Shown: positions 24,112-58,058 of the stretch, piece after piece
Position numbering within the stretch: position 1 is the stretch's first letter
Layout: the number at the start of each line of letters is the position of its first letter
IMG/VR virus record: IMGVR_UViG_3300030105_003283
Coordinates: 1 to 58,856 of that record
Source: a virus
Lineage: Duplodnaviria; Caudoviricetes
Strand: one strand, 5' to 3'
DNA: 58,856 bases
Notes under the pieces: model-generated
The model's database searches: none
Told to the model about the DNA's origin: nothing
The model's input: the letters and a program-made list of their open reading frames with translations, nothing else
Made by a program: the position numbers and the translations under genes

Positions 24112-24426
24112 TTACTTAGAGCCTTTGTTGGGGAGGATTTTAAAATTGGTAACCCTAAATATCACAGCTTCTGGATCTTTGGATGGTTGGTTTCTAGCTA
24201 TAGCCTCAACCGCCATGATGTCATCCTTGTACGCATACTTTTCAATTGTTTTGGCTGCGCTATCCCAAGCCTCAAATTTCAAAAGATCGGTTCTTCGTTT
24301 TTTAACGCCTCCCTTATCTCTTCTGTATTCCTCTACCTCTAGTGTAAAACCTACGGAAACACTGCTGTGAGATTCCCACAGGGTGGGGTCGTCCGTTAAC
24401 TTTCCCAAAAAATGAGATCTATTCAT
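24112..24426 (-). CDS. Short SSB/PriB-like OB-fold protein lacking acidic tail
   Basis: MNRSHFLGKLTDDP..FTLEVE..TDLLKFEAW..A..I..Y..KDD. Confidence 0.7.
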   Translation of the reverse strand: MNRSHFLGKLTDDPTLWESHSSVSVGFTLEVEEYRRDKGGVKKRRTDLLKFEAWDSAAKTIEKYAYKDDIMAVEAIARNQPSKDPEAVIFRVTNFKILPNKGSK

Positions 24427-24436
24427 ACGTCACCTT

Positions 24437-25990
24437 TCAAAGCTGAGAAACCTTGTCCACAATAAGGGAAGTGTTTTCTCTTTTAGATATTTCACCGGTC
24501 ATCAAGACGGTGTTTCCTTCAACAAGCACATCCTTATGCTTGCTATAACATTCTGGAAAAACGGTTATAGAATCCAGTTCGCCACTACCGTCCTCCGCAG
24601 TAACGAACGCCATTAACTGGCCCGGATTCTTACCCTTTTTGGTTTTATACAGCCTGATTGTACTAATTTGCGCGGCAAGTCTTGTCTTACCTGTTATAGT
24701 ACCTTTAGCTATCTCCCTGCACAAAGAACTTGCAAAATTTATGTTAAAGGCGTCGGTCTTGCTGCAACTTAGTGAAAAACTTAAATATTCTGTTTCACTT
24801 TGCGCTAAAAATGGTATGTTATCTTTTAGGTCGTGAGGAGGATTGTCTAGTATCTTCTTAATGTCTAGAACTGTTGTTATTCTTCTACTGTTTATTTTTG
24901 TGGTATTTATCATTTGAGATATGCTCTCAGAAAGAGTCTGACCCTTATCAAAACTGTCTGATAAATCCACTATCCCCTGTTGTTCCCTAGACGTTAAGTC
25001 TCTCCAGCTATCGTACTCATATAGCATCTTCTGTCTATCTCTTTTGTTATTTTCTCCATTAAAAGCCCCAACGGATATGAGGGCCGTTACAGACCTTTTG
25101 TTGAGTCTTCCTCTGTGTATAACTTTCGTCAACACGTCCATCCACGAGTAGCCAGATATGTCGTTTTTATCGCATATTTCCTCTATCTTTTTACACTCGT
25201 TTCTACCAACGTGTTTAATGTGATTTAGTCCGAAGTAGATACAGTTTTCTTTTGAAATAAAACTTGTGTGAAGATGGTTTAGTCGCGGAGGATAGACTTC
25301 AATATCTGAAAACTTAGCGTCAACAATCAGCTCTTTCAATTCCCTCTGGGAATCTGGTTTCCTCTCTGAATGATTCAAATACGACACATAGAAAGATATG
25401 GGTCTGTAGAGCTTACAGTACGCGCTCCAATATGCATTAATTGCATACGAGACAGCATGAGATTTGTTAAAAGCGTACCTGTTGGACTTTTCAATCCAAG
25501 AGAAAATTTCTTCAGCGACCTCAGTGCTTACAATAGCCCGTTCTTTAGCTCCCTCTAGGAAGTTCTTCTTGACCTCTTCCATAAGTCCAGCCTTCTTTTT
25601 ACCAATGGCCTTACGTAGGGCGTCAGCCTCCTTCAGGTCGAAACCAGCGAGCCTCTGGGCTATTTTCATGGACTGTTCTTGGTATACAAGAACTCCATAA
25701 GTCTCCGAGAGAGATTCCTTTAAGGCTTCGTCAGGATAAGTCACAGGTTCCTTGTTAGACTTTCTGTCCACATAAACCTGTGTCATGCTTTTTCCATTAG
25801 CATCCTTGGCCTTGAGACAGCCCGGTCGAATCAAACTGATTAGAGCGGCCAACTCTTTGATGCTTCTAGGCCTAACCTGCTTAGACCAGTGTCTACCCAA
25901 GCTTGACTCTAGCTGGAAAACGCCCTTGGTACGTCCGTCGCAAATCAAATCCCAAACATCTTCATCTTCAAAATTATTAATATCAAACAT
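24437..25990 (-). CDS. dnaE: DNA polymerase III alpha, C-terminal half (fingers, HhH, OB)
   Basis: GVFQLES, RPG, TYGVLVYQEQ, LRKAIGKKK, YAFNKSHAVSY, FGLNHIKHVG, MAFVTAED. Confidence 0.92.
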   Translation of the reverse strand: MFDINNFEDEDVWDLICDGRTKGVFQLESSLGRHWSKQVRPRSIKELAALISLIRPGCLKAKDANGKSMTQVYVDRKSNKEPVTYPDEALKESLSETYGVLVYQEQSMKIAQRLAGFDLKEADALRKAIGKKKAGLMEEVKKNFLEGAKERAIVSTEVAEEIFSWIEKSNRYAFNKSHAVSYAINAYWSAYCKLYRPISFYVSYLNHSERKPDSQRELKELIVDAKFSDIEVYPPRLNHLHTSFISKENCIYFGLNHIKHVGRNECKKIEEICDKNDISGYSWMDVLTKVIHRGRLNKRSVTALISVGAFNGENNKRDRQKMLYEYDSWRDLTSREQQGIVDLSDSFDKGQTLSESISQMINTTKINSRRITTVLDIKKILDNPPHDLKDNIPFLAQSETEYLSFSLSCSKTDAFNINFASSLCREIAKGTITGKTRLAAQISTIRLYKTKKGKNPGQLMAFVTAEDGSGELDSITVFPECYSKHKDVLVEGNTVLMTGEISKRENTSLIVDKVSQL

Positions 25991-26345
25991 TATCTTTCCT
26001 CAAATAATCAATTGCTCTCTGTAGCCCGCTAATGTTGTCTCCTAGCTTACCTATTCCTTGATTGCAGTTTCTGCACAACCAGCCCCGAAACTCTCCCGTT
26101 TCGTGATCGTGGTCTAGAACAAAATGGTCTGTTATCTTATAACAACACTGGCAATGCTCAGGTTTTGGTGGAGCGTCTTTTCTTGCTTGGGCTAGCTGCC
26201 TAGAGGCTAGCTTTTCACAAGTCTTACATTCCGATCTTACATATTCGCCACTGGAGGTGTTTTTGTAGAGTCTGCAAACTCGAAAGCTAGATATATGTTT
26301 TTCTCGTTTACACTTAGCGCAAATTTTATACGTACACGTTTCCAT
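25983..26345 (-). CDS. Endonuclease VII-type HNH (putative homing) endonuclease
   Basis: CAKC..CKTC Zn finger then CQCC..LDHDHETGEFRGWLCRNCNQGIG. Confidence 0.85.
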   Translation of the reverse strand: METCTYKICAKCKREKHISSFRVCRLYKNTSSGEYVRSECKTCEKLASRQLAQARKDAPPKPEHCQCCYKITDHFVLDHDHETGEFRGWLCRNCNQGIGKLGDNISGLQRAIDYLRKDNV

Positions 26346-27021
26346 CTGCAAATGCCTTTTCAAATTTTACTTTTTTCAATAAGCTTCTCTGTAACTTTAG
26401 GAACTTAATCATAAGATTTGCAGTATCCTTAACGTCTTGCAGTGCGTCGTGAGCATTGTCCTTGCTAGACTGATCCATTCCAAAGTAGTCACGCATGTAA
26501 TCCATACTATAGCCCTTGACGTCCTGATTGTTCTCAAACCAACAATATATATGTTGCATGACATCAATTGTAAAAATGGGATTAAAGATTTTTTGCCGAC
26601 CTTTTTTTTCATCAATGGGTCCGTACTGTTGACACATTCGCTCAACGATTGGCATATCAAATCCGTTGATATTGTAACCGGCCGCAATTGGTGCGTAATA
26701 GGAAGTATGCTTCCAGTTGTATTTATCACAAAACCCTGCAAACTTTTTCCACACTGTTTTAGGAAGGGGAGCCTTGGCAAGCTCTTTTCTAGTCTTTCTT
26801 GTTATCTCTAACGCCTTCTCCTCTAGCGGTCCAACGCCAGCCGCGATAGCTTTGTCGTCATCAATGATTGGTCTAATTTCACTATTGAACATCCCGCCGG
26901 GCTGAATCTCAAGCTTTCTTGCGTGAATAGCCACTGCTGCTATTTGGGTTGGTTGACATGTGTATGGATTCGCTCCACCAGTTTCAAAGTCAAATACAAT
27001 AATATCTCTAAAGTTTGCCAT
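26326..27021 (-). CDS. DEDDh 3'-5' exonuclease (DnaQ/epsilon-like)
   Basis: ExoI VFDFETGG, ExoII GYNINGFD, ExoIII HDALQD. Confidence 0.88.
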   Translation of the reverse strand: MANFRDIIVFDFETGGANPYTCQPTQIAAVAIHARKLEIQPGGMFNSEIRPIIDDDKAIAAGVGPLEEKALEITRKTRKELAKAPLPKTVWKKFAGFCDKYNWKHTSYYAPIAAGYNINGFDMPIVERMCQQYGPIDEKKGRQKIFNPIFTIDVMQHIYCWFENNQDVKGYSMDYMRDYFGMDQSSKDNAHDALQDVKDTANLMIKFLKLQRSLLKKVKFEKAFADGNVYV

Positions 27022-27022
27022 T

Positions 27023-27262
27023 TCAATAACCTCTATTTCTAAGTTCCAAAAATTTATTTACCGCGTCATCTATGTTATGGTACGTCTCGTAAATCCTATG
27101 TTTATCAGACCAGACCTGATATCTGGCAGCCCGAACAACAGCCCCACTTGTGTAGTTATTCAGGTTGCATATAGATATACCATTTGATTCTATTGAGCAC
27201 CCAGAAAAGATTACAGACTTGTAGTCTTCTTTTGTTTCCGATGTTTTATTATTCATATGCAA
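27023..27262 (-). CDS. Hypothetical protein
   Basis: 79-aa coupled ORF between dnaE-N and the exonuclease. Confidence 0.55.
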   Translation of the reverse strand: MHMNNKTSETKEDYKSVIFSGCSIESNGISICNLNNYTSGAVVRAARYQVWSDKHRIYETYHNIDDAVNKFLELRNRGY

Positions 27263-28844
27263 TGTCCATTATTTTACTAAGTAAGTCGATACCAAGAACA
27301 TCAAACTTTACATGTCCCTGAGTTTCAAGAGCCGTCATCTCGAAGGCTACAATAGGGTCTCCGGTCTTGTCTATTGTCATTGGACAGGTATCAGCGAGTA
27401 TGTGTTTAGAAATAATAACCCCCGCAGGATGCTTACCCTGTGATTTGTTCGTGCCTTCTATTTTGATAGCCTGCTCAAACATATGGGCAAGAGATCCTAC
27501 AAGGTTTCCATCTTCGTCTATTGAGCACCAGTTCTTGAGTTCGTCGGGCTCATTTTCCAATGTCCACCTAATAATTGATTTGTCTTCCATGAGCTCAAGC
27601 TGGTCGGAAATAACCGCTTCATCGGGTATGCCTTCTGTTATTGCGTTCATCTCCATAAACGAGACGGCATCATTGATTCTTAACACCTCTTTTAACGCAG
27701 CTCTGCCCTGAAGTCTACCAAACGTTATCATCTGTCCAACCTTATTTGACCCATATTTTTCTTTAATATAGTCAATTACTTCGTCTCTATGTTCGGATGG
27801 AATGTCCATGTCTATATCTGGTAGGGACGTATAGTCTTCTGTGTTTCTTCCCTCGTTATAAAACCGTTCAAAAATTAGGTCATATTCTATGGGATCTACC
27901 TCAGTGACACCAATAAGATACGACACTAAACATCCAGCAGCAGAGCCTCTCCCCGGCCCAGCCAGCCATCCCCTTTCCTTAACACTATTGATGATGTCTT
28001 GAACAATCAGAAAATACCCAGAAAGACTCGCCTTAAATATAACATCAAGCTCCTTTTTAATCCTGTCAAGATATTCTTGCTTCTTATCCGGGTCGGCAAT
28101 CTTGCCCTGTGGAATAAGCCTGCTTTTCCAGCCCTCTCGGCAAAGATTTGTTAGGTGTTCGTCCTCATCAACTCCTTCTGGACATTGAAATTTTGGGAGC
28201 ATGGGTTTGGCTGCTATCTCATAACTCTCGCACATGTCGCAGATTTTGTTTAAGAGTTGGATTTCCTCGTCTGAATCTTTAACCTCATCGGGTTCCGGCA
28301 GGTAGAAATCATCGCTAGTGAAGAACTCTTTGTTTTTCACCTCTTCGCCACTGTTCATTAACGACTGTATCTTGGGCAGTGTTGTCTTCATTCCGGAACA
28401 CAGAAGAACCCTGTGGGCCTCCGCCTCGTCTTTTGTAACGTAGTAGACGCCACGATCTTTGTAGCCGTAAGAGAAATAATTTTTACCAAATGTTTTCTTG
28501 TATCCGGCCTGATGTTCATTCGTTATACATATCAGATTTCCTCTTTTGGCAAGATCCTGAAACAACGCAAGGCCACCATGCGACACTATTTTAATCAGGT
28601 CAAACCAGCCGTCCTTATTCTTTGCTATAAGGAGGTGTGTCCCAAAATCACAACCCAAGATAGGCTTGACGCCATGCTTGTGACAGGACTCGTGAAAATT
28701 TACAGCTCCAGACAGGCACTCCATGTCAGTAATCACACAGGCGCGATATCCGTACTCCTTACACTTCGCAGCAAGTTTATCACACTTTGAAAACGCTTTT
28801 AACAGACTAAAGTGTGTCTTGCAGTTAAATGGTATCCATTTCAT
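27249..28844 (-). CDS. dnaE: DNA polymerase III alpha, N-terminal half (reduced PHP, palm/thumb)
   Basis: THFSLL, GPGRGSAAGCLVSYLIGVTEVDP, FERF, LPDIDMD, GKHPAGVII, KFDVLG. Confidence 0.92.
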   Translation of the reverse strand: MKWIPFNCKTHFSLLKAFSKCDKLAAKCKEYGYRACVITDMECLSGAVNFHESCHKHGVKPILGCDFGTHLLIAKNKDGWFDLIKIVSHGGLALFQDLAKRGNLICITNEHQAGYKKTFGKNYFSYGYKDRGVYYVTKDEAEAHRVLLCSGMKTTLPKIQSLMNSGEEVKNKEFFTSDDFYLPEPDEVKDSDEEIQLLNKICDMCESYEIAAKPMLPKFQCPEGVDEDEHLTNLCREGWKSRLIPQGKIADPDKKQEYLDRIKKELDVIFKASLSGYFLIVQDIINSVKERGWLAGPGRGSAAGCLVSYLIGVTEVDPIEYDLIFERFYNEGRNTEDYTSLPDIDMDIPSEHRDEVIDYIKEKYGSNKVGQMITFGRLQGRAALKEVLRINDAVSFMEMNAITEGIPDEAVISDQLELMEDKSIIRWTLENEPDELKNWCSIDEDGNLVGSLAHMFEQAIKIEGTNKSQGKHPAGVIISKHILADTCPMTIDKTGDPIVAFEMTALETQGHVKFDVLGIDLLSKIMDIAYE

Positions 28845-35496: not shown

Positions 35497-35878
35497 CTAC
35501 ATCCTCGTTGTAATTAAACTCTATTAACGTAATGTCGTTTAGGTTGCACCACTCTTTTTTTTCGGAGTCTCTAGCTTTTGCCCTATAGAAGGATAGTTTG
35601 TCCTTGTAGAAGAACTTGTTAAACTTATAGTGCTGCTCGCCATGAACTTCGATTAACAGATTTCTGTTTGGTATAAAAAGATCGGCCCTTAAGGTGCCGC
35701 TCCGTCTCTCTGTTTTACTTCCGACTAGTGAAACCTCTTCCAGTATTCTATCATACGGAAAGAGTTTGTCAAGTAAAATTTTGGCTTTTATATGTAAAGA
35801 AGATAGTTTAGGTGAATTTGCCTGACTGGCAGACGGATTCCAGCTGTATTCTTTTCCATCAAGACCCTGTATAATCAT
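35471..35878 (-). CDS. Vsr/DUF559-like endonuclease
   Basis: LRADLFIP..LIEVHGEQHY..RDSEKKEWC. Confidence 0.75.
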   Translation of the reverse strand: MIIQGLDGKEYSWNPSASQANSPKLSSLHIKAKILLDKLFPYDRILEEVSLVGSKTERRSGTLRADLFIPNRNLLIEVHGEQHYKFNKFFYKDKLSFYRAKARDSEKKEWCNLNDITLIEFNYNEDVDDWRRKIK

Positions 35879-36575
35879 TGTATTTATCCCTTAGTATCTT
35901 ATATGACTCTTCCCATCTGGAAACATGGTAGCAGACATCAGACTTAGAAGATATGGGAAAATCGTTCCCGCTAGGCTCACACCTATCTCCAAAGAATACG
36001 GTTTTTCCTGTCATGTCGAGAAGGGCTTGTGATTTATTTTTTCCTTTTGGATAGATGTCTATGCTTATCTCGCCACCAACTGAAAACTCTAACTTGGGAT
36101 ACAACATAGACAATCGCTCTACAATACTTCTTCGCTCGCCAATTGCTTTATCCCACTTGCAGTATACTTGGCGCTGTCTCTTTGTTGCACTTCTACCTAG
36201 AGTGGTAATATTCACCATTCCAATGCGTTCTTCTATATTGTTTTCAGCTTTTCCAAACCAAGGACTCTTTTCCAATAAGATGTGTAAGTCTAGGCGAAGA
36301 TGAGCAGACATTTGCCACTTCGATTCTTTTACCAGCCGCCCTTGTTTATAGAGCTGATTGCCACAACATTGATAAGAGCCGTTAACACATCTCCAGAGAG
36401 GGGTTCCAATTTGTTGTATTGTTTTTTCTCTATCTGATCCGGTTACAAAAAAAACCTTGTCCCCATACCAGCCCTGCCTGAAAACAGTCCACTGTCCAAA
36501 AAACCGTTTGAAATTCTTATCCATACTACGCCTAGGTTGCGTAAGCGTTCCGTCTATGTCAAATAGAAAGTTCAT
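35859..36575 (-). CDS. HAD-IIB phosphomannomutase (PMM2/Sec53-type)
   Basis: FDIDGTLT, VTGSD, IEERIGMVNITTLGR, SVGGEISIDIYPKG, FFGDRCEPSGND. Confidence 0.85.
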   Translation of the reverse strand: MNFLFDIDGTLTQPRRSMDKNFKRFFGQWTVFRQGWYGDKVFFVTGSDREKTIQQIGTPLWRCVNGSYQCCGNQLYKQGRLVKESKWQMSAHLRLDLHILLEKSPWFGKAENNIEERIGMVNITTLGRSATKRQRQVYCKWDKAIGERRSIVERLSMLYPKLEFSVGGEISIDIYPKGKNKSQALLDMTGKTVFFGDRCEPSGNDFPISSKSDVCYHVSRWEESYKILRDKYNDYTGS

Positions 36576-36587
36576 TTAAACCCTGCG

Positions 36588-37427
36588 TTATACCACAGCC
36601 CTCCCTTTTAACTTTTCCCAGTCTTTGTCGGGCCTAACTTCTAGATTGGTCTCCCAAGCCCCACGAAGCGTGTGACATGTCGTCCCTAGCTTTTCTGCAA
36701 GGGTTATGATCGAGTTCAGATCTTTAGGAAAACAGCTCCCGCCAAACCCCTTCTTGCCGTCTGGCCCCGGAACAACCCAGTGCGTATCTCCCAGCCTAGG
36801 GTCAAAGTTGGCGTATTCTGCGATCTTGTCATAATCAACGCCACTAGCCTCACACAGTTTAGCAAATTCATTAGCAACCGAAACCTTTACTGCCAAGAAG
36901 CAGTTAGATAGATATTTTACATATTCAGCAACTGTGGACTCTGTTTTTACAACCTTTACATTTGGAAACACATGTGAGTAAAACTGTTTTAGGGATGTGG
37001 TAGCAGATATGTCGCCACCCAGTATTACCCTACTAGTATTCTTAAAATCTCTAGCTGCAAATCTTTCGGTTAAAAATTCGGGATTAAAAACAATTTTATC
37101 TGTTCCGAGCTTACAGTTTAGGTAGTCTGTGGTTCCCGGAGTAACGGTAGATTTTATAACAACAAAATGGTCATCTCCCGCAGCAACCACATCAGAACAA
37201 ACCTGCTCCACTACCGAGATGTCACAGGAGCCATCTTTTCTCATTGGTGTCGGTACGCAAACGAATACAACGTCTGACGCATTACAAAGGTTTACTATTG
37301 AATCGTGCGTGCAAGATCCATCTAAAAACTTATCATATGTGTTTACCGTATAATATTGTGAGAATTCTTCTTTTAGAGCCCGACCAACAAAACCCTGTCC
37401 AATCACACCAACAGTTTTAATTATCAT
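36588..37427 (-). CDS. UDP-glucose/GDP-mannose dehydrogenase family protein (no C-terminal domain)
   Basis: GQGFVG, CVPTP, KSTVTPGTT, FNPEFL, GFGGSCFPKD. Confidence 0.85.
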   Translation of the reverse strand: MIIKTVGVIGQGFVGRALKEEFSQYYTVNTYDKFLDGSCTHDSIVNLCNASDVVFVCVPTPMRKDGSCDISVVEQVCSDVVAAGDDHFVVIKSTVTPGTTDYLNCKLGTDKIVFNPEFLTERFAARDFKNTSRVILGGDISATTSLKQFYSHVFPNVKVVKTESTVAEYVKYLSNCFLAVKVSVANEFAKLCEASGVDYDKIAEYANFDPRLGDTHWVVPGPDGKKGFGGSCFPKDLNSIITLAEKLGTTCHTLRGAWETNLEVRPDKDWEKLKGRAVV

Positions 37428-49390: not shown

Positions 49391-49462
49391 TTTAAATCTC
49401 CAATTAAAAATTAGTTACAGTTCACCTTATTCCAAAAATTAAAATCCTTTTAGTTTAGCATA

Positions 49463-49554
49463 AACGTCTTCCATGAGCTTCAGTACGGGTGCAATAGGTG
49501 TTTTGCTCGCAATATCTGAGGTTCATACCTCAACCCACCCTTTAGGGTGACGTT
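49463..49554 (-). ncRNA. Candidate structured leader RNA / small ncRNA
   Basis: Nested stems directly downstream of a consensus promoter; no family recognised. Confidence 0.35.
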
Positions 49555-49566
49555 GTCTTCTCGTTC

Positions 49567-49595
49567 ATTATAGTGTATACCTCGTCATTTGTCAA
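49567..49595 (-). promoter_or_regulatory. Consensus sigma70 promoter
   Basis: TTGACA-17 nt-TATAAT. Confidence 0.85.
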
Positions 49596-49640
49596 ACTAT
49601 TTCTTGAGTGTTATTCAATTTTTATTGAAAAAGAGAGACT

Positions 49641-50699
49641 CTAAAGTCCATTGACGATCTCTTTGGCGGAATTATCCCATGAAAAGCGTGTTCCAGTGTT
49701 TGTGCCAGCTTCATTTAATTCTAGGTTATTTTGTTTTTTATCGCTGTGAACCGCCCTCATATGGCAAACCATCTGTTCCTTTTCTGACTCTCCTATGTTT
49801 GCCCATAGTCCACGAGAACCATCAAAGAAAACACCGTCATGAGCCGTTTCTAAATTCTCTATGTCTACTAGAAGCGAGTTCTCGCTGTTGCAAAACTCTG
49901 TATGCGCTGAGTAGTTTGTAGCTATGACCTGTTTTCCACAGGCCATCATCTCAAGAAGCTCTAGGTTCCAACCCTCGGCCCGCGATGGAAATATCCCGCA
50001 GTCAGCCTGCTTCATTACATTATATACGTCTTGGTGTGTTTTCTGTCTTGGAATCATTCTTATCTTATCGCCAAGAGGAGATGACTTGTATAGGTTTTGC
50101 CAGTCTTGATTGCCTTGACCTATAAAGGGATTGTCACACATCATCCATAATTCAACATCATCAGCCTGAGTGAAGGCGCTACTAAAGCACTCAAGCAAAA
50201 CGTCGTGACCTTTTCTTTTTTCCCATTTTCCGCAGTTTAAAAAGACTGTAGGTATTCTGCCAGACTTGACAGGAGTAAATAGTTCCGCATCAACTCCCAG
50301 AGGGACTACATGAACGTCTTGGTCTGAGAACCTATGTGACATCTGGTCTAGAATTATCTGCTTTGCCCATTTTGAGCAGACAAATATTTTATCGCAGTGA
50401 TTGAGGCTGCTCTTTTCTTCATCATTAAATTCAGTGAGTTCAAAGATGGGGAAGCCTATGTGTTTGCCTTTACCGACAAATTCGTATAGATCGTTCTGAT
50501 GCCATATCTTTACACAGTCGTTGCTACTATTGTCACGGCTTCTGTTGTCCAATCCGGATTGTATAGCTGCGTCAACGAACTCTGGTCTTGAAATAGGGTA
50601 TAGGGCGCTGGTGGGATCTAACCCGTATAAGCTTTTAAAAATATTATATCCAGCAACCCCATAACCTAAATTGTTTATGGGAGCAATTAAGTTAATCAT
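49641..50699 (-). CDS. GT4 glycosyltransferase
   Basis: LGYG, VPLGVD, GKWEKRKG, PSRAEGWNLELLEMMACG. Confidence 0.85.
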   Translation of the reverse strand: MINLIAPINNLGYGVAGYNIFKSLYGLDPTSALYPISRPEFVDAAIQSGLDNRSRDNSSNDCVKIWHQNDLYEFVGKGKHIGFPIFELTEFNDEEKSSLNHCDKIFVCSKWAKQIILDQMSHRFSDQDVHVVPLGVDAELFTPVKSGRIPTVFLNCGKWEKRKGHDVLLECFSSAFTQADDVELWMMCDNPFIGQGNQDWQNLYKSSPLGDKIRMIPRQKTHQDVYNVMKQADCGIFPSRAEGWNLELLEMMACGKQVIATNYSAHTEFCNSENSLLVDIENLETAHDGVFFDGSRGLWANIGESEKEQMVCHMRAVHSDKKQNNLELNEAGTNTGTRFSWDNSAKEIVNGL

Positions 50700-50712
50700 T
50701 CAACCCTTAAAT

Positions 50713-50988
50713 TTATAGTTCTGTTATTTTAAGTTCGGTTTCACACATGGGACACAAATCTATAACTGTACCCTCGTGGACGCCATTCTTGTGCTGTCCT
50801 ATCAGGAGAACCTGCATAATCATGCTTTCTCTCGACTTGGAGTCCTCAATGAGTTGATTAAGAGCAGGAACGCTAATCGTTGGGACGGGTTTTTCCTTGG
50901 TCATTTCTTTGTGCAGAAGGACTTGAAGCACTATGTTGATCATACATAGAACCATCACGAAGTGTCCTATTGGTTTAATATCGCTCAT
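50713..50988 (-). CDS. Small membrane-anchored hypothetical protein
   Basis: N-terminal hydrophobic helix; H..H..CPMC near C-terminus. Confidence 0.55.
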   Translation of the reverse strand: MSDIKPIGHFVMVLCMINIVLQVLLHKEMTKEKPVPTISVPALNQLIEDSKSRESMIMQVLLIGQHKNGVHEGTVIDLCPMCETELKITEL

Positions 50989-50989
50989 A

Positions 50990-51373
50990 TTATTTGCTCC
51001 CTATTGCTTGATACTTGCCAGTGGAAAAGTTAAATATATATACTGCCCCGATGCTCATATTTGAGTAAGAAATACCTACTCTGACATATCTTCGATCTGG
51101 AGAAACTATAACGGGCCCTGCCGTCATCATGTTTCCTTGAGGGAGGATAGATATAATTGGATGATAACCAACAGCTCTATTCTTTTGAGGCAAAAACATA
51201 CCTGCTAAAGACGCTTTTCTTCTATCTCTTGCTAATTCTTTAACCGCAGAAGTATAAGTGAGGCTGTTTAGTTTTTCTCTAAGGGACAACTCTCTTTGTG
51301 GCCGCTGTGCCATAACAAGGGTTGGCAATACAACCATAACCACAACGAGTAAAGATTTCTTAATGACATTCAT
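50990..51373 (-). CDS. Secreted protein with planctomycete secretin-like C-terminal motif
   Basis: Sec signal ending VMA-Q; AVGYHPIISILPQG..VIVSPDRRYVRVGIS. Confidence 0.6.
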   Translation of the reverse strand: MNVIKKSLLVVVMVVLPTLVMAQRPQRELSLREKLNSLTYTSAVKELARDRRKASLAGMFLPQKNRAVGYHPIISILPQGNMMTAGPVIVSPDRRYVRVGISYSNMSIGAVYIFNFSTGKYQAIGSK

Positions 51374-52587
51374 TATACAAACAATTCCTTTATAACTTTT
51401 CCGGAGTTGGCGATTTTCATAGGTCTTCCGCTATTGCTAGTGAAGGTTGTGCTCAAAGAAATTCCTAACGCCTTACAAACAGATGCCATAACATCCTGAG
51501 ATGTATAAGGGTCTGTTATAACCTTAGTGCCGTCATCGCTTGTTGCCCCTACCGCGATACCACCATTCATGCCTGCTCCACCAACCACGACGCTCCAACT
51601 ACGAGCCCAGTGATCGCGACCAGCGTTTCCGTTGATGCGAGGAGTACGGCTGAATTCACCCATCCAAATAATGGCGGTGTCTTTTAATAGCTCTCTTTGC
51701 TCAAGGTCTTCAACCAATGCACTCATTCCTTGATCAAGCACGGGCAGCTTATTATCTTTTAGTGTCGGATGGATATTTTGGTGATTATCCCACCCTCCTA
51801 AATTAACCTCAATAAAGGGAACTCCGACTTCGACAAGTCTTCTTGCCATTAGGCAACCTTTACCAAACCCATTATCTCCGTATCTTTCTTTAACGGGTTC
51901 AGGTTCGCCCGCGATCTTAAAGGCCTCCATCTGTTCGCTTGTAAGAAGGTTGAACGTTTGCTTTAATACTGACTGGTGATCCTTAGCGAGAGAACCTCTT
52001 CTCTGATTAATAAAATTAGTCTCTAAGAAATCAAGAGCATAGGCTCTTTGAATGAGCCTTTCGTCTACCTTCATGTCTAGGTTTCTTATTCTTCCGTCGC
52101 TATTGACAGAAAAAGGATTATACTGAGCTCCGAGAAAACCTGCCCCCATGCTCCCGCCGCCGACAGTAACAAACTGGGGTATTTCAATGTCGTCTCGTCG
52201 GAGTTGATGAGATAGGACAGAGCCATAGCTGGGGTGTTCCATTGACGGACTAGGAACATAGCCCGTATGCATATAGTAACGTCCACGCATGTGGTCAGCT
52301 TCACGAGTACTCATTGATCTAATGATAGCCATGTTGTGCATCTGCTTGGCCATTAACGGCATATGTTCACAAATCTGGACATCTCCCGTTGTGCCAATTG
52401 GCTTAAATGGCCCACCAGTTGCGGCGTCCGGTTTAAGATCCCAGATATCCATAGTGGACGGACCACCGCCCATCCATAGCAGGATGGCGGATTTCCCATT
52501 CTTCTTTATCTCTTCCTGATTGGCTTTTAGGGTTTGAAGAAGCCCAAGAACACCAGCAGTACTCGTTAAAAATTCTCTTCTTTTCAT
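51373..52587 (-). CDS. DUF1501-family protein with Tat signal
   Basis: KRREFL, WMGGGPSTMDIWD, HMRG, HPSYGS, ARRLVEVG, GGWDNH, GEFSRTP, GRDHW. Confidence 0.9.
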   Translation of the reverse strand: MKRREFLTSTAGVLGLLQTLKANQEEIKKNGKSAILLWMGGGPSTMDIWDLKPDAATGGPFKPIGTTGDVQICEHMPLMAKQMHNMAIIRSMSTREADHMRGRYYMHTGYVPSPSMEHPSYGSVLSHQLRRDDIEIPQFVTVGGGSMGAGFLGAQYNPFSVNSDGRIRNLDMKVDERLIQRAYALDFLETNFINQRRGSLAKDHQSVLKQTFNLLTSEQMEAFKIAGEPEPVKERYGDNGFGKGCLMARRLVEVGVPFIEVNLGGWDNHQNIHPTLKDNKLPVLDQGMSALVEDLEQRELLKDTAIIWMGEFSRTPRINGNAGRDHWARSWSVVVGGAGMNGGIAVGATSDDGTKVITDPYTSQDVMASVCKALGISLSTTFTSNSGRPMKIANSGKVIKELFV

Positions 52588-53875
52588 TCTAATTCTTCCT
52601 TTAAACTAAATAATTAATTCTTGTCTTACTTTGCCGCCGTCTATGATTTCAATAGGCCTATCTCCGGGAGCCATCAGCTCTTTATCTGCAACAATACCTA
52701 GTTGATTATATATAGTTGCGGCCCAGTCTTTAACGGTTAGAGCGTCTTCTTCTGGCTCACTAGCCGTGGCATTAGATTTACCGTAGACTATACCTCTCTT
52801 GACTCCTCCTCCGGCCATAACAACACTAAACACTTTAGGCCAATGGTCACGACCCGCAGTAGCATTAATCTTAGGTGTTCGACCAAATTCAGAAGCCATA
52901 CAAACAAGTGTTGAGTCAAGCATACCTCTATCGTCTAGGTCTGAAATAAGAGCAGCGAAGCCTTGGTCAAGGGCTGGAACCTGTCTTTTAATTCCTGCCT
53001 CAATACCATCATGCATATCCCACCCGCCGTAGGTTAGTGTAACAAACCGAGTGCCAGCTTCAACTAAACGTCTCGCAAGTAACATTCTTGCTCCCGCAGT
53101 ATTGCGTCCATATTTGTCACGAGTAGCAGCGTCTTCTTTATTGATGTCAAATGCTTCTCTAGCCTTCTGGCTATTAATTAAGTTATATGCCCTATCATAG
53201 AATGTATCGACGGCATCGAGTGAGTCTGAATTTTCTTTATTAGTAAAGCGATCATTGACAGTAGCTAGAACCTTCTGCCTCTTGATAAACCGATCATCAT
53301 TTACTCCGTCGGGCAGGTTTAGATCACGTACCCTGAATCCCTCGCTGGCTGGATCTGCCCCAAGGCCAAACCCAGAATATGAACTGCTTAAATAACCAGT
53401 TCCAGCGTATTCATTAGGAGGGCTAGGAATACAAACATAAGGAGGAAGGTTTTTTCGTGGGCCAAATTCATGTGATACTACAGAACCTATGCTTGGATAC
53501 TGGAGGGCTGGACTAGGACGATAACCAGTAAACATATTGTGCGTCCCTCTTTCGTGAGCCGCTTCACCGTGAGTCATTGATCGGCAAATCGCAATCTTAT
53601 CAGCTATCTTTGACGTGTTTACCATCATCTCATTAAGTCTTACTCCGGCAACATTAGTTTGAATGCTACCCATCGGTCCACGATACTCAATGGGAGCAAA
53701 GGGCTTAGGGTCCCAAGTTTCTTGGTGAGCAGATCCGCCGGGAAGGTAGATAAATATGACGCTTTTTGCTGGCCCTTCCTTGCTCTCATAGAACTTCTGG
53801 TCGCCACAAACCTCTAGGGTTTGTAGAAGACCTAAAATGCCAGCGGTACTCGTTAAAAATTCTCTTCTTTTCATT
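52559..53875 (-). repeat. 30-bp identical direct repeat (52559-52588 and 53846-53875) at the 5' ends of two DUF1501 genes
   Basis: gtactcgttaaaaattctcttcttttcatt present twice, inside a roughly 60-bp near-identical block. Confidence 0.9.
52606..53874 (-). CDS. DUF1501-family protein with Tat signal
   Basis: KRREFL, GGSAHQETWDPKP, HERG, YPSIGS, ARRLVEAG, GGWDMH, SEFGRTP, GRDHW. Confidence 0.9.
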   Translation of the reverse strand: MKRREFLTSTAGILGLLQTLEVCGDQKFYESKEGPAKSVIFIYLPGGSAHQETWDPKPFAPIEYRGPMGSIQTNVAGVRLNEMMVNTSKIADKIAICRSMTHGEAAHERGTHNMFTGYRPSPALQYPSIGSVVSHEFGPRKNLPPYVCIPSPPNEYAGTGYLSSSYSGFGLGADPASEGFRVRDLNLPDGVNDDRFIKRQKVLATVNDRFTNKENSDSLDAVDTFYDRAYNLINSQKAREAFDINKEDAATRDKYGRNTAGARMLLARRLVEAGTRFVTLTYGGWDMHDGIEAGIKRQVPALDQGFAALISDLDDRGMLDSTLVCMASEFGRTPKINATAGRDHWPKVFSVVMAGGGVKRGIVYGKSNATASEPEEDALTVKDWAATIYNQLGIVADKELMAPGDRPIEIIDGGKVRQELII

Positions 53876-53891
53876 ATAGTAACCCTCTATC

Positions 53892-54368
53892 TTAAGATCT
53901 TCGTTTCTGGATATACTTCTTAAGTGCTTCTTTTTCCTGCCCATCAAGCTTGCCGTCCTTATTTTTATCAAACTTTTTCATCACCTCTTTATATCGAGAG
54001 TGTCTATCAGAAGAAGGTCTACTTTGAGGAGGTCTACCTTGAGGAGGTCTATCTTGAGGAGATCTACTACGTGACGGAGGCCCGAAGCTGGGGGTTCTTC
54101 CGTCAAAGCCACGAGTAGGCTTGCTGTGCGGAGGTTGAAAGTTAGGAGTTTTTCCGTCAAAGCCACGAGGAGGTGATGGGCGTTCTGCTTTACAGCATCC
54201 GGGTTTACATTTACACTTCTTTTTACAGTTACAATTACATGTGGGGCCACATTTATTGCAATGCGGGTAGGATGGCTTTGGAGACCCCTTTATCATTGCT
54301 GCCGACGCCAATTCACAAGGGATAATTATAACCCCTACCAATAATGCTAGTACGCTTCTTCTATTCAT
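53892..54368 (-). CDS. Exported Cys-rich (metallothionein-like) / Pro-rich / EF-hand protein
   Basis: MNRRSVL plus hydrophobic signal; CNKCGPTCNCNCKKKCKCKPGCC; PQxRP repeats; DKNKDGKLDGQE. Confidence 0.7.
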   Translation of the reverse strand: MNRRSVLALLVGVIIIPCELASAAMIKGSPKPSYPHCNKCGPTCNCNCKKKCKCKPGCCKAERPSPPRGFDGKTPNFQPPHSKPTRGFDGRTPSFGPPSRSRSPQDRPPQGRPPQSRPSSDRHSRYKEVMKKFDKNKDGKLDGQEKEALKKYIQKRRS

Positions 54369-54402
54369 ATCATTCTCCGTTTCTTTATTATCTGCTAATT
54401 AT

Positions 54403-54777
54403 TTAAGCTGGGATTAACACTCTTCCATTCTTTGTGTATACGCCTTTTCTGGCAAACTCATAAATTTCGCCGGTAACTGGGTCTTTGTACTTATATCCCG
54501 CAACACTTTCCCCGTTTACAGGAATACACTTGCCGTCTTTTTCTACGTACCCCTCATTACAATTGGGTGGGTATCCGGCCTTTTCATCAGACTCAGAATT
54601 ATGTTTGATTTGAAAGTCTACCGCAGCAATACTACTAAGACCTTCTATAGCCTTACCGACACAAACGGCATATCTCTGCTGACCCTCGGGATATTCTTTA
54701 TTCATAACATCGTCACCCATACAGCGTGACATGAACTTATTTTTATCTTCGCCTTCTTTTTTAGATGGTATTGGCAT
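54403..54777 (-). CDS. Modular phage hypothetical protein
   Basis: MPIP..E...FMSRCM..QRYAVC module; CNEGYVEKDGKC module. Confidence 0.6.
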   Translation of the reverse strand: MPIPSKKEGEDKNKFMSRCMGDDVMNKEYPEGQQRYAVCVGKAIEGLSSIAAVDFQIKHNSESDEKAGYPPNCNEGYVEKDGKCIPVNGESVAGYKYKDPVTGEIYEFARKGVYTKNGRVLIPA

Positions 54778-54793
54778 CGGTGTCTCCTATGGT

Positions 54794-55117
54794 TTATGCC
54801 TGAAAGCTACTTCCACAGCCGCAAGACTTAACTGCATTAGGGTTACTAAAAGTAAACCCTCTCTGTGAAATGTCATTATAGTAATCTAGAACAGTGCCAT
54901 CTAAATATAGGTCACTCTTCCTGTCTACAATAACGTCAACACCATGCTGACTAGATAGAGTATCTTTTTCTTCATCGTATTCATGGCTTACTGTGATGTT
55001 ATATTCAAATCCAGAACATCCACCACCCTTCACGCCAACTCTTAGGTATTTTTCTTTATTGTCTTCAATATAGGTTTTGGCTTCGACTGCTGCCGCTTCT
55101 GTTAATTTAATTGTCAT
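54794..55117 (-). CDS. iscA: A-type Fe-S cluster carrier (IscA/ErpA/HesB family)
   Basis: IKLTEAA, LRVGVKGGGCSGFEY, LDGTVLDY, NPNAVKSCGCGSSF. Confidence 0.93.
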   Translation of the reverse strand: MTIKLTEAAAVEAKTYIEDNKEKYLRVGVKGGGCSGFEYNITVSHEYDEEKDTLSSQHGVDVIVDRKSDLYLDGTVLDYYNDISQRGFTFSNPNAVKSCGCGSSFQA

Positions 55118-55122
55118 AGTAT

Positions 55123-55389
55123 TTACTTTTCCTCGCCCTTAAGCTCTGTTGATAAATGATACTTTTCCCTAGTCTTCTCAATCCACGCCTGTTCTTCTTC
55201 CCTGCCTTCTCTAAGCCTAATGTTCAGAAGTATGTCTATCTGACCCGCTTGGTGGATATGAAGAGTATATATCTCGTGTATTTCTTTTTTTAGCTCATTT
55301 ACACTATGGGCTAGAGCACACATTCCAACAGTAACAGTAACCAAAAATACTGAGTATACATAAGGGGCTATTGATTTTAGTAACTTCAT
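55123..55389 (-). CDS. Small membrane-anchored hypothetical protein
   Basis: N-terminal TM then charged helix. Confidence 0.55.
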   Translation of the reverse strand: MKLLKSIAPYVYSVFLVTVTVGMCALAHSVNELKKEIHEIYTLHIHQAGQIDILLNIRLREGREEEQAWIEKTREKYHLSTELKGEEK

Positions 55390-55438
55390 ATACTCAACTC
55401 CTGCGTTATGTTAAAATGCTTGACTGTAGCCACCACCC

Positions 55439-56686
55439 TTATAGTATTGACTTTGCCTCGCCTTCTAATAAGTATCTTGGGCGACCACCATTGTCCGTTC
55501 TCATGGTCTCTGTGCTTATTCCAAAGTGATCAAACAGAGTTGCTTGAAGATCAAGTGGCCCAACAGGATTTGCTATTGGGCTGTATGACCTGTCTGCCTC
55601 GCCAATTGTTCTACCTGACTGATATTCCCCGCCAGCCATAAGCATTGGAGTAATTGAGGGCCAGTGGTCTCTTCCAGAGTTTCCGTTAATTTTAGTTCTT
55701 CCAAACTCACCAGTAACAACAAGAATAATTTTCTCGTTTAGTCCGCGATCCCAAACGTCCTGTAGAAATCCGGATATGGCCTTATCAACAGGGGGAACTT
55801 TAGTTTTCATAGCTTGAGATATATCACTATGCATGTCCCAGCCGCCATATGTAAGTGTCACAAAGCGTGTTCCATATTCTGCAAGCCTTCTAGCAAGAAG
55901 TAGCTGCGTTCCTATGGTGTCGGAGCCATAAAGAGCTTTTGTCTTTTCATCTTCTTTATCTAGATTAAAAGCGTCCTTGGCAGACCCAAGAATTACATCA
56001 TAGGCTTGTCCCTTATAGAACTCTGAGGACTTTGCTCCGTTACCAGAAATTCCAGTTGCGTCCAGAGCGTTTAACAGTCCTTTTCTATTGGTAAACCTGT
56101 CGATTTCTATTCTAGGGGTAAGATTGTCTTTGTTGGATGGGTCAAACGGTTTATACGCACCCCCAAGCCAAGATCCCTCATCCCCCTCTATTTTACCCTG
56201 TTTTACATAGGAGGGCATACCATTTTCTGGATGGTTAGTTCCATAGGAAGCAGACACGATAGACCCAAAGGATGGATGCTCTGTCATAGAGGTAGTAGTT
56301 CTGTCCGTGTTGTAATGTCCAGTCATCATAAAATGAGTTCCCTGTCTGTGGGAAGAGTCTTTATGACTGAAAGAGTTTACTACGTTTAGCTTGCTCGTAT
56401 GCTTGGAAAGCTCTTTCCAATCAGCGCCAAGAGAGATGTTAGTTTTTGAATCATATATTCTACCGTTTGCTGGCTGCCATTCTGAGGGAGTGTTATCTAG
56501 TGGAGCATGAAATGTCTCAAATTGAGATGGGCCTCCTCCAAGCCATAGCCAGACCACTGTCTTGTCTTTGTATGCGACGGCCCCATCTTGAGAAAAGGCT
56601 CGGTCAGAAAGACCTATGGCGCTCATTCCGGCCCCTATGCCGCCAACCCTTAGAAAGTCTCTCCTGTTAAAGCTGATATCTAACAT
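55439..56686 (-). CDS. DUF1501-family protein with Tat signal
   Basis: NRRDFLRVG, WLGGGPSQFETF, HRQG, HPSFGS, ARRLAEYG, GGWDMH, GEFGRT, GRDHW. Confidence 0.9.
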   Translation of the reverse strand: MLDISFNRRDFLRVGGIGAGMSAIGLSDRAFSQDGAVAYKDKTVVWLWLGGGPSQFETFHAPLDNTPSEWQPANGRIYDSKTNISLGADWKELSKHTSKLNVVNSFSHKDSSHRQGTHFMMTGHYNTDRTTTSMTEHPSFGSIVSASYGTNHPENGMPSYVKQGKIEGDEGSWLGGAYKPFDPSNKDNLTPRIEIDRFTNRKGLLNALDATGISGNGAKSSEFYKGQAYDVILGSAKDAFNLDKEDEKTKALYGSDTIGTQLLLARRLAEYGTRFVTLTYGGWDMHSDISQAMKTKVPPVDKAISGFLQDVWDRGLNEKIILVVTGEFGRTKINGNSGRDHWPSITPMLMAGGEYQSGRTIGEADRSYSPIANPVGPLDLQATLFDHFGISTETMRTDNGGRPRYLLEGEAKSIL

Positions 56687-56723
56687 GTCATTCTCCCGAG
56701 ATTGTTGTTTTATAATACGTCTT

Positions 56724-57188
56724 TTATGATATACACATAAAACAGTCTTTTATCAGAGATTCTGCGGAGTCGTATTTTGTTTTAGATGACAGACTCTTGA
56801 CTAGCTTAGACGCATCCCTCTTTTTATAGCCCATGTTGCACAGACCAGAGATGGCTTCCGCCTCAATAACTTGACTCGTTGGGGGAGCTACGGCTTGGGG
56901 TGAGGCTTTCTTCTTTGGTTTAGTCGCCCTCTTCTGTTTGGGGGGTTTGCTGATTTTAACGACAGACTCTTCCCAAGTCTCGCTGGGTGTAAAGCCAACG
57001 TCTTTTGGTGGATTGTAGGTATTTTTTGCTGGAGTCCTTTTAGGGGGCGCGTATACTATTATCGGTCTCGCGGCAGCGGCAGCTATTGCCTCAAAAAACG
57101 CTCTTAAAAAGTACAAACTAATAGGAAGTATTAAACATCCTAAAAATAAAATTGCTAAATCCGAGTCCCAAGTTCCTACGTTTCTCAT
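56724..57188 (-). CDS. Membrane-anchored protein with RuvA C-terminal (domain III)-like domain
   Basis: N-terminal TM, P/K-rich linker, EAISGLCNMGYKKRDASKLV..AESLIKDCF. Confidence 0.65.
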   Translation of the reverse strand: MRNVGTWDSDLAILFLGCLILPISLYFLRAFFEAIAAAAARPIIVYAPPKRTPAKNTYNPPKDVGFTPSETWEESVVKISKPPKQKRATKPKKKASPQAVAPPTSQVIEAEAISGLCNMGYKKRDASKLVKSLSSKTKYDSAESLIKDCFMCIS

Positions 57189-57189
57189 A

Positions 57190-57432
57190 CTATTGCTCCT
57201 TAAAATTTCTTATTTGACACGCTCTGTTTTGTAACGACTCCACCTCTCTCTTCAAGAAATAAGTTTCCCTTTCGAGCTTCCTTTCCTCTCTCCTCACCGC
57301 TTGTCTTTTGAGTTTTACTTTTGCAAAATTCTTTTTCTTTTCCTTTGTGCTTACGCTCCTCTTTTTATTTCGTTTTTGATTTTTAACTTCTTTGGATTTG
57401 TTTTTCTTTTTCATAGGGTATTCACTATTCAA
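57190..57432 (-). CDS. Highly basic hypothetical protein
   Basis: 80 aa, K/R-rich. Confidence 0.5.
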   Translation of the reverse strand: MNSEYPMKKKNKSKEVKNQKRNKKRSVSTKEKKKNFAKVKLKRQAVRREERKLERETYFLKREVESLQNRACQIRNFKEQ

Positions 57433-57680: not shown

Positions 57681-58058
57681 CTAGAAGGGTTCTTTCTCCG
57701 AGTCTTCAGAGGCGGACACGGCTGAAGCCTTTTTCATATTGGTGGGTTTTACCACCTTTGAAAAACTACTAGGAAGAACGCTGTAGGAAGTCCTACTGTT
57801 TCCATTTTTATCTTCCCAGTCCCGCTGTCGAATTCGACCATCCACAATTACTCGATCACCCTTTTCAAGGCCAACATTTTCGGAATAAGCCGCATGGCTA
57901 CCCCATCCGTCAACATCTAAATAGATGGTTTCCTCTTTGCCGTTTCCGATTGACTCGTTTACGGCGATACGAAATGTAACCAGTTCTTTTTCAGAAATGG
58001 TTTTATATTCGGGATCTTTTGTAAGATTTCCCTTAAGAACAATACGATTATTATACAT
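57681..58058 (-). CDS. ssb: Single-stranded DNA-binding protein
   Basis: NRIVLKGNLTKDPE, FRIAVN, KGDRVIVDGRI..WEDKNG; acidic tail ending PF. Confidence 0.92.
   Translation of the reverse strand: MYNNRIVLKGNLTKDPEYKTISEKELVTFRIAVNESIGNGKEETIYLDVDGWGSHAAYSENVGLEKGDRVIVDGRIRQRDWEDKNGNSRTSYSVLPSSFSKVVKPTNMKKASAVSASEDSEKEPF

Follow-up and report, generated by a model that had tools for sequence, protein, structure and literature searches.

Three host-derived DUF1501 genes form the core of a mobile cassette in a marine tailed phage

What are three different genes of the DUF1501 family doing side by side in the genome of a phage, and do they work as one machine with the small genes that lie among them? 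The question is raised by the IMG/VR virus record IMGVR_UViG_3300030105_003283, analysed here over its whole length of 58,856 bases (the window), in which the three genes, called A, B and C below, lie among nine open reading frames (ORFs) within 50713-56686. An original prediction, made from the letters of the window, had joined all of these into a periplasmic module in which three exported DUF1501 proteins are partners of an Fe-S carrier, a metal-binding protein and a secretin-motif protein. We find that three DUF1501 genes of host origin make up the core of the locus, a cassette that moves between phages, and that the six other genes are variable passengers.

DUF1501 genes and their PSCyt/PSD partners rank with the largest families known from the genomes of Planctomycetota and Verrucomicrobiota, and no function is given for them in the literature searched. 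A single DUF1501 query matches 26-100 places per genome at E<=1e-30 in five host genomes. DUF1501 together with PSCyt1/PSCyt2/PSD1 has been described as a 'conserved genetic module' of Planctomycetes, Verrucomicrobia and Lentisphaerae, whose 'most complex' cluster holds four genes, encoding a DUF1501 protein, a PPC protein, a PSCyt/PSD1 protein and a PSCyt1-WD40 protein (Kamneva et al. 2012, PMC3542564). The sources searched assign no function to this DUF1501-PSCyt-PSD1 module of bacteria of the Planctomycetes-Verrucomicrobia-Chlamydiae (PVC) group (PMC3542564, PMC5615132).

A, B and C are full-length members of the family. All three lie far above the gathering cut-off of PF07394 (27 bits; scores in Table 1) and cover profile positions 1-2 to 383-390 of 390. 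They are divergent, with pairwise identities of 34-37%, and their translations carry the four motifs that had been read from the window: GGPS (A, C) or GGSA (B), and GGWDxH, EFxRT and GRDHW in all three. Among 53 aligned sequences of the family, 22 columns are invariant, including H107, T116, D286, H288, D303, R332, T333, R342 and H344 (B numbering); A, B and C keep every one of them, so that no decay of these residues is seen. PHROGs holds no family for A, B or C and NCBIfam none for B or C.

Each of the three proteins begins with a twin-arginine motif, FNRRDFL in A and MKRREFL in B and C, which is followed by a hydrophobic stretch. The twin-arginine signals of the original prediction are confirmed at the level of this motif and not by the corresponding hidden Markov model, TIGR01409, which gives A 15.1 bits, under its cut-off of 16.7, and matches neither B nor C. 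Export by the twin-arginine translocation (Tat) pathway is predicted from the motif and from the leaders of the host orthologues, and a role in the host periplasm is the natural reading of the leaders. Tat substrates commonly carry cofactors. B was also considered as a lipoprotein and rejected as such, the Cys that follows its leader being Arg in nine relatives.

How constant is the company that these genes keep? Relatives of B are encoded in 18 of the 24 IMG/VR stretches found by the pattern, and DUF1501 relatives in 559 of the 597 stretches with the family profile. Gene content was counted in the best 80 of these 559 viral DUF1501 loci, with 6 kb on either side, many of the loci being cut by contig ends. 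B is present in 77/80, A in 46/80, C in 41/80 and all three together in 31/80, and a fourth, distant DUF1501 paralogue is found in 16/80. The modules of the 124-aa protein occur in 35/80 loci and the 91-aa gene in 25/80; the rarer passengers are the Cys-rich gene (10/80), the 127-aa gene (7/80), the IscA gene (5/80) and the 88-aa gene (4/80). Given such low counts for the IscA, Cys-rich and 127-aa proteins, the Fe-S carrier, metal-binding and 'secretin' proteins are not conserved partners. Recurrence with iscA in phage contigs, which the original prediction had proposed as a check, is thus seen in few loci, and a fixed module is not supported. At E<=1e-10 there is no match to B in 50,697 GenBank phage records, and in BFVD the one near match, at 16% identity, comes from an uncultured phage and bears the automatic name 'DUF1501 domain-containing protein'.

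These counts bear directly on the idea that the DUF1501, IscA, Cys-rich/EF-hand, small membrane and secretin-like proteins constitute a single machine that remodels the periplasm. In its favour, only short gaps separate these neighbouring, co-oriented genes in the window, purifying selection acts on IscA, and it has been argued that Tat substrates often bear cofactors (PMC3542564). Nevertheless, the counts largely refute such a machine, gene order is shuffled between the relatives, DUF1501 has no invariant Cys in the 53-sequence alignment that could bind an Fe-S cluster, no similarity to secretins was found and IscA has no leader. We consider an integrated machine very improbable.

The cassette is also genuinely a phage locus. 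The source record has no end repeats and is ~40% complete by the IMG/VR estimate, and nearly all of its long ORFs are on the - strand. It encodes a split DnaE, a primase, a DnaB helicase, RecA/UvsX and two single-stranded DNA-binding proteins (SSBs), as well as a class II ribonucleotide reductase, dUTPase, PhoH, a deoxynucleoside monophosphate kinase and a sigma factor. In a related phage record with the same cassette (G007; 105.8 kb, 65% complete) there are also genes for a large terminase, a head maturation protease, virion proteins and tape-measure-like proteins. CheckV completeness estimates put the full genome of the tailed phage, of which the window is a fragment, at about 150-160 kb, and all phage records used here are fragments, 34-66% complete. 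A scan of the window for tRNAs found none, and hence gives no clue to the host.

It might be objected that host DNA was mis-joined to phage DNA, or that a host island was miscalled viral, since IMG/VR records can include host fragments and B is 84% identical to host proteins. Yet the cassette has a glycosyltransferase gene (49641-50699) as one neighbour and, at its other end, genes for a RuvA_C-like protein and an SSB, the cassettes of the relatives are likewise bordered by phage genes (54/80 independent viral contigs carry phage genes like those of the window), and contigs of three other metagenome studies bridge the junctions between the cassette genes. Moreover, the G+C content at third codon positions is 0.34 in the phage B gene, which matches the phage, versus 0.45-0.48 in the nearest host genes, synonymous sites of B are saturated between phage and host (proportion of differing synonymous sites, pS, 0.84) and none of the host partner genes is there. 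This makes mis-assembly with host DNA very unlikely, and we put an artefact of either kind at the very bottom of the range of explanations. A near-identical stretch is found in marine, sediment and sponge metagenomes, with at least a part of it in 20 runs from 10 studies.

That the cassette is mobile is seen from its comparison with the rest of the phage genome. Between the window and G007, eight core genes have protein identities of 57-70% and saturated synonymous sites (pS 0.77-0.86), whereas the protein identities of A, B and C reach 88%, 97% and 98% and their pS values are 0.55, 0.31 and 0.44. The longest well-conserved run of DNA shared by the two records measures 3,257 bases at 86.7% identity and runs from the 127-aa gene through C and B into the 3' part of the Cys-rich gene. 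The cassette occupies three different positions across the phages, namely after a PD-(D/E)XK nuclease gene, before PhoH and, in the window, between the RuvA_C-like gene and the glycosyltransferase gene, and the order of its genes is shuffled. Since it is conserved well above the core and is differently placed, it has been exchanged between diverged phages. Within the lineage the ratio of nonsynonymous to synonymous substitution rates (dN/dS) is 0.047-0.082 for A, 0.035-0.063 for B and 0.018-0.027 for C, which corresponds to strong purifying selection.

A second sign of recombination is found in the leaders. The first coding bases of B and C are equal at 53 of 60 positions and the encoded leaders at 19 of 20 residues, whereas the whole proteins are 37% identical. 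C carries the short leader in all five of the lineage-1 rows compared; B has the C-type leader in the window and in five further loci and a longer, host-like leader in four loci. The leader of B therefore appears to have been replaced by that of C, through recombination inside a phage genome. A contig of 151 bases from a seawater RNA library joins a point upstream of B (53886) to the start of C (52593), with six other letters in between, and skips 1,292 bases of B. It may represent a B-less recombinant formed across the shared leader repeat, or an assembly-graph effect.

Where did the three genes come from? Proteins from Pirellulaceae and Rhodopirellula metagenome-assembled genomes (MAGs) share 84% identity with B. 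Among contigs representing one genome per species, its relatives occur in 152 of 207 pattern stretches; the best 80 of these 152 host loci, on which the host counts for B rest, are 59-84% identical to it and span Planctomycetota and Verrucomicrobiota. In a tree against host genes (93 rows), which the original prediction had suggested as a check, the eight phage copies of this lineage group into a single clade, and five marine Planctomycetota MAGs (L022-L026) make up its sister clade, each with a support of 100 in the Shimodaira-Hasegawa-like approximate likelihood ratio test (SH-aLRT), and two other phage lineages branch apart. The host orthologue of B heads a conserved cluster and is followed by two large genes in 12/12 loci. 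The genes behind it encode, where scanned, a PPC protein (6/6), a PSCyt2+PSD1 (DUF1549/DUF1553) protein (5/6) and then a PSCyt1-WD40 protein (3/3). An orthologue of the PSCyt2/PSD1 gene lies downstream of B in 40/80 host loci and encodes an invariant C-A-Q-C-H haem-type motif. In a model of this host partner, with a predicted local distance difference test (pLDDT) score of 76.9, a structural search matched only an Ig-like Big_2 domain (residues about 220-310) and barely covered the helical part. No C-type, A-type, IscA or small cassette gene lies next to the B orthologue in any of the 80 host loci (0/80), which argues that the trio was assembled by phage from separate host sites and was not captured as an operon.

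C has a different home. It has one clear orthologue, 68-78% identical, in four of five host genomes, the next paralogue being at most 40% identical. In all four loci this gene lies between a PSCyt2/PSD1 gene upstream and a gene for an extracytoplasmic function (ECF) sigma factor downstream, and in three of the four a further PSCyt2/PSD1 gene clearly follows. The order PSCyt2/PSD1, DUF1501, ECF sigma, PSCyt2/PSD1 is kept across L118-L121 (genomes G001-G004), with MatE next in the 3/3 loci scanned. The cluster looks like a signalling unit, and a similar sigma-PSD1/PSCyt2 pair of Rhodopirellula baltica is reported to be induced by three stresses (PMC2754498). The sigma-70-family factor of the phage itself (47050-47532) is 23% identical to the host ECF sigma factor beside the C orthologue (E 0.007 in a single comparison), with no specific kinship. 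By their orthology, B and C are captures from marine Planctomycetota (Pirellulaceae-like), and the phage probably infects planctomycete bacteria of this marine, Pirellulaceae-like kind.

The history of A is longer. Its best 120 relatives (58-89% identity) are all on contigs of at most 153,746 bp and only one of them, on a 10-kb contig, bears an organism name. Its best matches in cells are 39-40% identical (5 + 151 Planctomycetota genomes). In a tree of 41 rows, the 17 viral A-type rows group into a single clade with a long stem. Its sister group consists of three cell genes, one of which lies in a WD40-DUF1501-PSCyt2/PSD1-PPC cluster. As judged from these comparisons, A was captured long ago, its later evolution took place within phages, and it forms a phage-only branch.

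The phage genes thus stand apart from the partners that accompany their host orthologues. Neither PF07583 (PSCyt2) nor PF07587 (PSD1) has a match in the window, where the original prediction had likewise seen no DUF1549/DUF1553 gene, or in the records G006, G007 and G008 (58.9-105.8 kb for the four, 34-65% complete), and DUF1800 has none in 5/5 phage records. B and C are orthologous to members of the host DUF1501-PSCyt2/PSD1 module and have no adjacent PSCyt2/PSD1; since none adjoins in the window or in G006-G008, the trio consists of DUF1501 members and is not a complete module. The neighbourhood of DUF1501 in a T4-like lineage (with gp32 and gp59) is of a different composition: in L021 (5066-11260) a full PSCyt2/PSD1 gene adjoins two DUF1501 genes, a type I signal peptidase gene and a MotA/ExbB-like gene, and L019 (336-11260), of the same lineage, has a further pair made up of DUF1501 and PSCyt1/PSCyt2/PSD1.

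How might such partner-less subunits act? The phage DUF1501 proteins would fold in the cytoplasm and then exit via the host Tat pathway. In the periplasm they would dock on the PSCyt2/PSD1 (and PPC) partners of the host, where the phage copies would replace or add to the host DUF1501 subunit, and the outcome would be a periplasmic ester-processing step that is kept running or is boosted during infection. This step would most likely be the cleavage of phospho-esters or sulfo-esters feeding the nutrient supply, or else the handling of organic esters. We give about an even chance to this reading, in which the trio are auxiliary periplasmic enzymes that dock on host partners and sustain an ester-processing step during infection. 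Docking on host DUF1549/DUF1553 partners gains weight from the orthology of B and C to members of two host modules that hold such partners.

The same partner-less orthologues could also serve the opposite end, by titration or as dominant-negative subunits: the phage copies would bind host PSCyt2/PSD1 and block or redirect a host process, perhaps shutting down an envelope or signalling function or excluding superinfecting phages. The host module of C, with its ECF sigma factor and second PSCyt2/PSD1, looks like a signalling unit, and a related ECF sigma factor of Rhodopirellula baltica is reported to be stress-induced (PMC2754498). A blocker need not, however, keep putative active-site residues, yet all 22 of the 22 invariant columns are kept, and the dN/dS of 0.02-0.08, measured along the full length, is more in keeping with an enzyme at work than with a protein that only binds. 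A blocking role thus seems quite unlikely to us.

If the proteins that would dock on host partners are working enzymes, their fold may point to the kind of chemistry. An AlphaFold2 model of B has a mean pLDDT of 89.2, residues 1-24 being disordered, as expected of a leader. Against 48,161 PDB representatives, with matches within 1 Z unit regarded as tied, the nearest fold is that of ENPP7 (Z 19.9, root-mean-square deviation 2.9 Å, 240 residues aligned), together with ENPP4 (Z 19.8), a bacterial nucleotide pyrophosphatase/phosphodiesterase (NPP; Z 19.7), ENPP6 (Z 19.5), PafA (Z 19.3) and sulfatases (up to Z 18.1). The 50 listed members of the superfamily have Z of 15-19.9 over B residues about 30-422, and sequence identity to the fold matches is 8-17%. 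Foldseek also places sulfatases and alkaline phosphatases first with the B model (probability 1.00), and a single-sequence search gave no PDB match for DUF1501. By its modelled fold, B is a distant member of the alkaline phosphatase superfamily, nearest to NPP/PafA phosphoesterases and sulfatases, and hydrolysis of phospho- or sulfo-esters by the trio is plausible on this model. Sulfatases carry a Cys/Ser-x-Pro-x-Arg motif; none was seen in the translations of A, B and C.

The window also holds a glycan gene block of ~24 kb (1-24108), with many glycosyltransferases, a GDP-mannose 4,6-dehydratase, epimerases, methyltransferases, a GT10 fucosyltransferase-like protein and two sulfotransferase-family proteins (PF03567); example ORFs are 7715-8299, 8837-9619, 9616-10494, 4572-5555 and 2546-3481. 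A phosphomannomutase and a UDP-glucose dehydrogenase are encoded further on (35859-37427). From this gene content, a sulfated, fucose-type glycan may be made by the phage.

Could the trio then act without any PSCyt2/PSD1 partner, as stand-alone periplasmic or envelope enzymes working on the envelope or on phage-made glycans, for example by trimming sulfated or phosphorylated sugars that the 24-kb block would make? The glycan genes with their two sulfotransferase-family proteins, the glycosyltransferase gene that abuts the cassette, the fold shared with sulfatases and the lack of an orthologue of A in a host module all speak for this, and some host DUF1501 genes are reported to have no PSCyt neighbours (PMC3542564). 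Against it stands the orthology of B and C to subunits of host modules that are tightly conserved across two phyla; moreover, the cassette of the relatives travels apart from the glycan genes and is found beside a nuclease, PhoH or DnaE gene. We therefore hold stand-alone enzymes to be unlikely.

Docking on host partners has a bolder form. Here the phage family would have made a portable kit out of a two-part periplasmic system of the host: the DUF1501 proteins would be orphan catalytic subunits, swapped between phages and provided with a common leader, that plug into the haem-motif PSCyt2/PSD1 scaffolds of the host and re-aim them during infection, with A as a virus-evolved specificity, possibly directed at the phage's own sulfated/fucosylated glycan. 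We offer this form tentatively and hold it to be unlikely. Should it prove correct, a virus would for the first time be seen to hijack the PVC-specific PSCyt2/PSD1 machinery, and that machinery would gain its first functional handle.

Several points weigh against the trio being auxiliary enzymes that dock on host partners. The records are 34-66% complete and a partner gene could lie elsewhere in the phage genome; other phage lineages do carry PSCyt2/PSD1 beside DUF1501 (the T4-like G009; 4/80 loci). A has no close cell orthologue, and the replacement of a host subunit would not be simply transferable to it. No DUF1501 member has been characterised in the literature searched. The family profile is only weakly similar to those of solved sulfatases, LtaS and ENPP4 (E 0.07-2, in a single short stretch), in that weak alignment the D-H pair of the sulfatases lines up with the E-F of the EFxRT motif, and an hhalign comparison of the DUF1501 profile with that of a host NPP covers 44 columns at 4.9% probability, which is too weak for mapping an active site; ordinary hydrolase chemistry is thus not assured for DUF1501. 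Recent transfer, and not constraint alone, could in part explain the conservation of the cassette. Finally, there is little support from expression: in one RNA library (X20), four contigs match C (99-100%) and may stem from DNA carry-over; no cover is seen outside C, and contigs of this kind are unable to show absence.

The nine genes of the cassette and the two leader-coding segments are listed in Table 1.

Table 1. Genes of the DUF1501 cassette and leader-coding segments in the window
Feature	Position	Strand	Remarks
91-aa small membrane protein	50713-50988	-	One N-terminal hydrophobic helix (by eye); no family in Pfam, PHROGs or NCBIfam
127-aa protein	50990-51373	-	Signal-peptide-like N-terminus, predicted exported; no family in Pfam, PHROGs or NCBIfam
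DUF1501 C	51373-52587	-	404 aa; PF07394 345 bits; orthologue in host PSCyt2/PSD1-DUF1501-ECF sigma-PSCyt2/PSD1 cluster
Leader-coding segment of C	52528-52587	-	Likely donor of the B leader
DUF1501 B	52606-53874	-	422 aa; PF07394 383.5 bits; orthologue of a member of the host DUF1501-PPC-PSCyt2/PSD1-PSCyt1/WD40 module
Leader-coding segment of B	53815-53874	-	Common to B and C
158-aa Cys-rich, Pro-rich protein	53892-54368	-	N-terminal hydrophobic leader; one EF-hand-like loop; predicted exported
124-aa protein	54403-54777	-	Two short modules; no family in Pfam, PHROGs or NCBIfam
IscA/HesB-type A-type Fe-S carrier	54794-55117	-	PF01521 70 bits; TIGR00049 115.2 bits; phrog_17776 1.2e-30
88-aa small protein	55123-55389	-	One N-terminal hydrophobic helix (by eye); no family in Pfam, PHROGs or NCBIfam
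DUF1501 A	55439-56686	-	415 aa; PF07394 225.2 bits; RR leader; phage-only clade

Among the passengers, the IscA that had been read from the window is well founded, its TIGR00049 score lying above the cut-off of 58.8 bits. One of its Cys residues is in a G-G-G-C-S-G stretch and two are in a C-terminal C-G-C, which we take to be the three conserved Cys of A-type carriers, and its dN/dS is 0.04-0.08. For the supposed exported Cys-rich/EF-hand protein of 158 aa, the leader, the Cys-rich stretch and an EF-hand-like loop of 12 residues (DKNKDGKLDGQE) are indeed present; this loop presumably fits the canonical EF-hand pattern, and the protein scores 22.1 bits against EF-hand_1 (PF00036), under the cut-off of 25.4. 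Its relatives are 34-92% identical and it is fast evolving (dN/dS 0.19-0.39; 0.11-0.39 across the 127-aa and Cys-rich proteins). No support was found for a secretin motif in the protein of 127 aa: it has no Pfam family, PF00263 included, at E<=0.01 and no secretin match in NCBIfam at E<=1, BLASTP against a host secretin gives E 5.8, and its look-alikes are only viral hypothetical proteins. The two supposed small membrane proteins each show one N-terminal hydrophobic helix by eye. The one of 91 aa has 19 distinct relatives (22-76% identity), and in related phages its gene often lies just downstream of C, directly or behind the 127-aa gene; atlas look-ups of the 127-aa and 91-aa proteins returned only unnamed, mostly viral clusters. 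The 124-aa protein is a mosaic of two short modules (1-56 and about 90-124), each of which has its own matches, in phage proteins that range from 64 to 524 aa. Scans of 49400-57400 revealed no signal for promoters (12 promoter-like sites versus 15.5±3.9 in shuffles) or for terminators (10 terminator-like sites versus 6.9±2.6).

Outside the cassette, the two SSB genes of the window are at 24112-24426 and 57681-58058. The DnaE-type polymerase is split into a part with PHP and NTPase domains (27249-28844) and a part with finger, HhH and OB domains (24437-25990), and the genes of an RNase T-like exonuclease (26326-27021) and an endonuclease VII (25983-26363) lie between the two halves. The same split is found in a second phage lineage (L020, 17018-20913), in which the exonuclease is present and no endonuclease VII gene was seen between the halves.

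The original prediction knew of no characterised viral DUF1501 module, and we find none described in the literature searched. Viral DUF1501 genes are not described there either, although supplementary tables, which are outside the search, may list PF07394; in the papers searched, the only phage mention of DUF1501 is a weak CDD match of a 61-aa Pseudomonas phage protein. The retention by phages of three or four of the many DUF1501 genes points to the paralogues that may matter most during infection, and the cassette offers a minimal set for DUF1501 biochemistry and genetics. It would also link an abundant, uncultured family of large marine phages to a marine, Pirellulaceae-like planctomycete host.

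The trio is a host-derived phage auxiliary gene set and as such of a known kind: its location in phage DNA is genuine, it recurs and it is under purifying selection. It differs from that kind in its orphan family, its predicted Tat-exported products, its several subunits from different modules and its one phage-only clade. Cyanophages carry psbA, pstS and phoA as auxiliary genes for host subunits or nutrient acquisition. By analogy, the trio resembles these in being host-derived, flanked by phage genes on a lytic-type genome, under purifying selection, with phage codon usage and likely to work with host components, and differs in belonging to a family to which no function is given, in its predicted Tat-exported products, in having three to four paralogues together and in its probable planctomycete host. 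With NPP phosphodiesterases, PafA and type I sulfatases, B would share the fold of its whole mature part (Z 19.9 with ENPP7, 19.3 with PafA, <=18.1 with sulfatases), at identities of 8-17% and with the sulfatase Cys/Ser-x-Pro-x-Arg motif not seen in the trio. The closest counterpart is the module of Kamneva et al. (PMC3542564): B is orthologous (59-84%) to the DUF1501 member of its four-gene cluster, C belongs to a second module type, and the twin-arginine leaders and family motifs are the same. In contrast to that module, the phage genome holds the DUF1501 member only, with three members of different modules placed side by side, leaders that appear shortened and exchanged, and, in A, a clade found only in phages.

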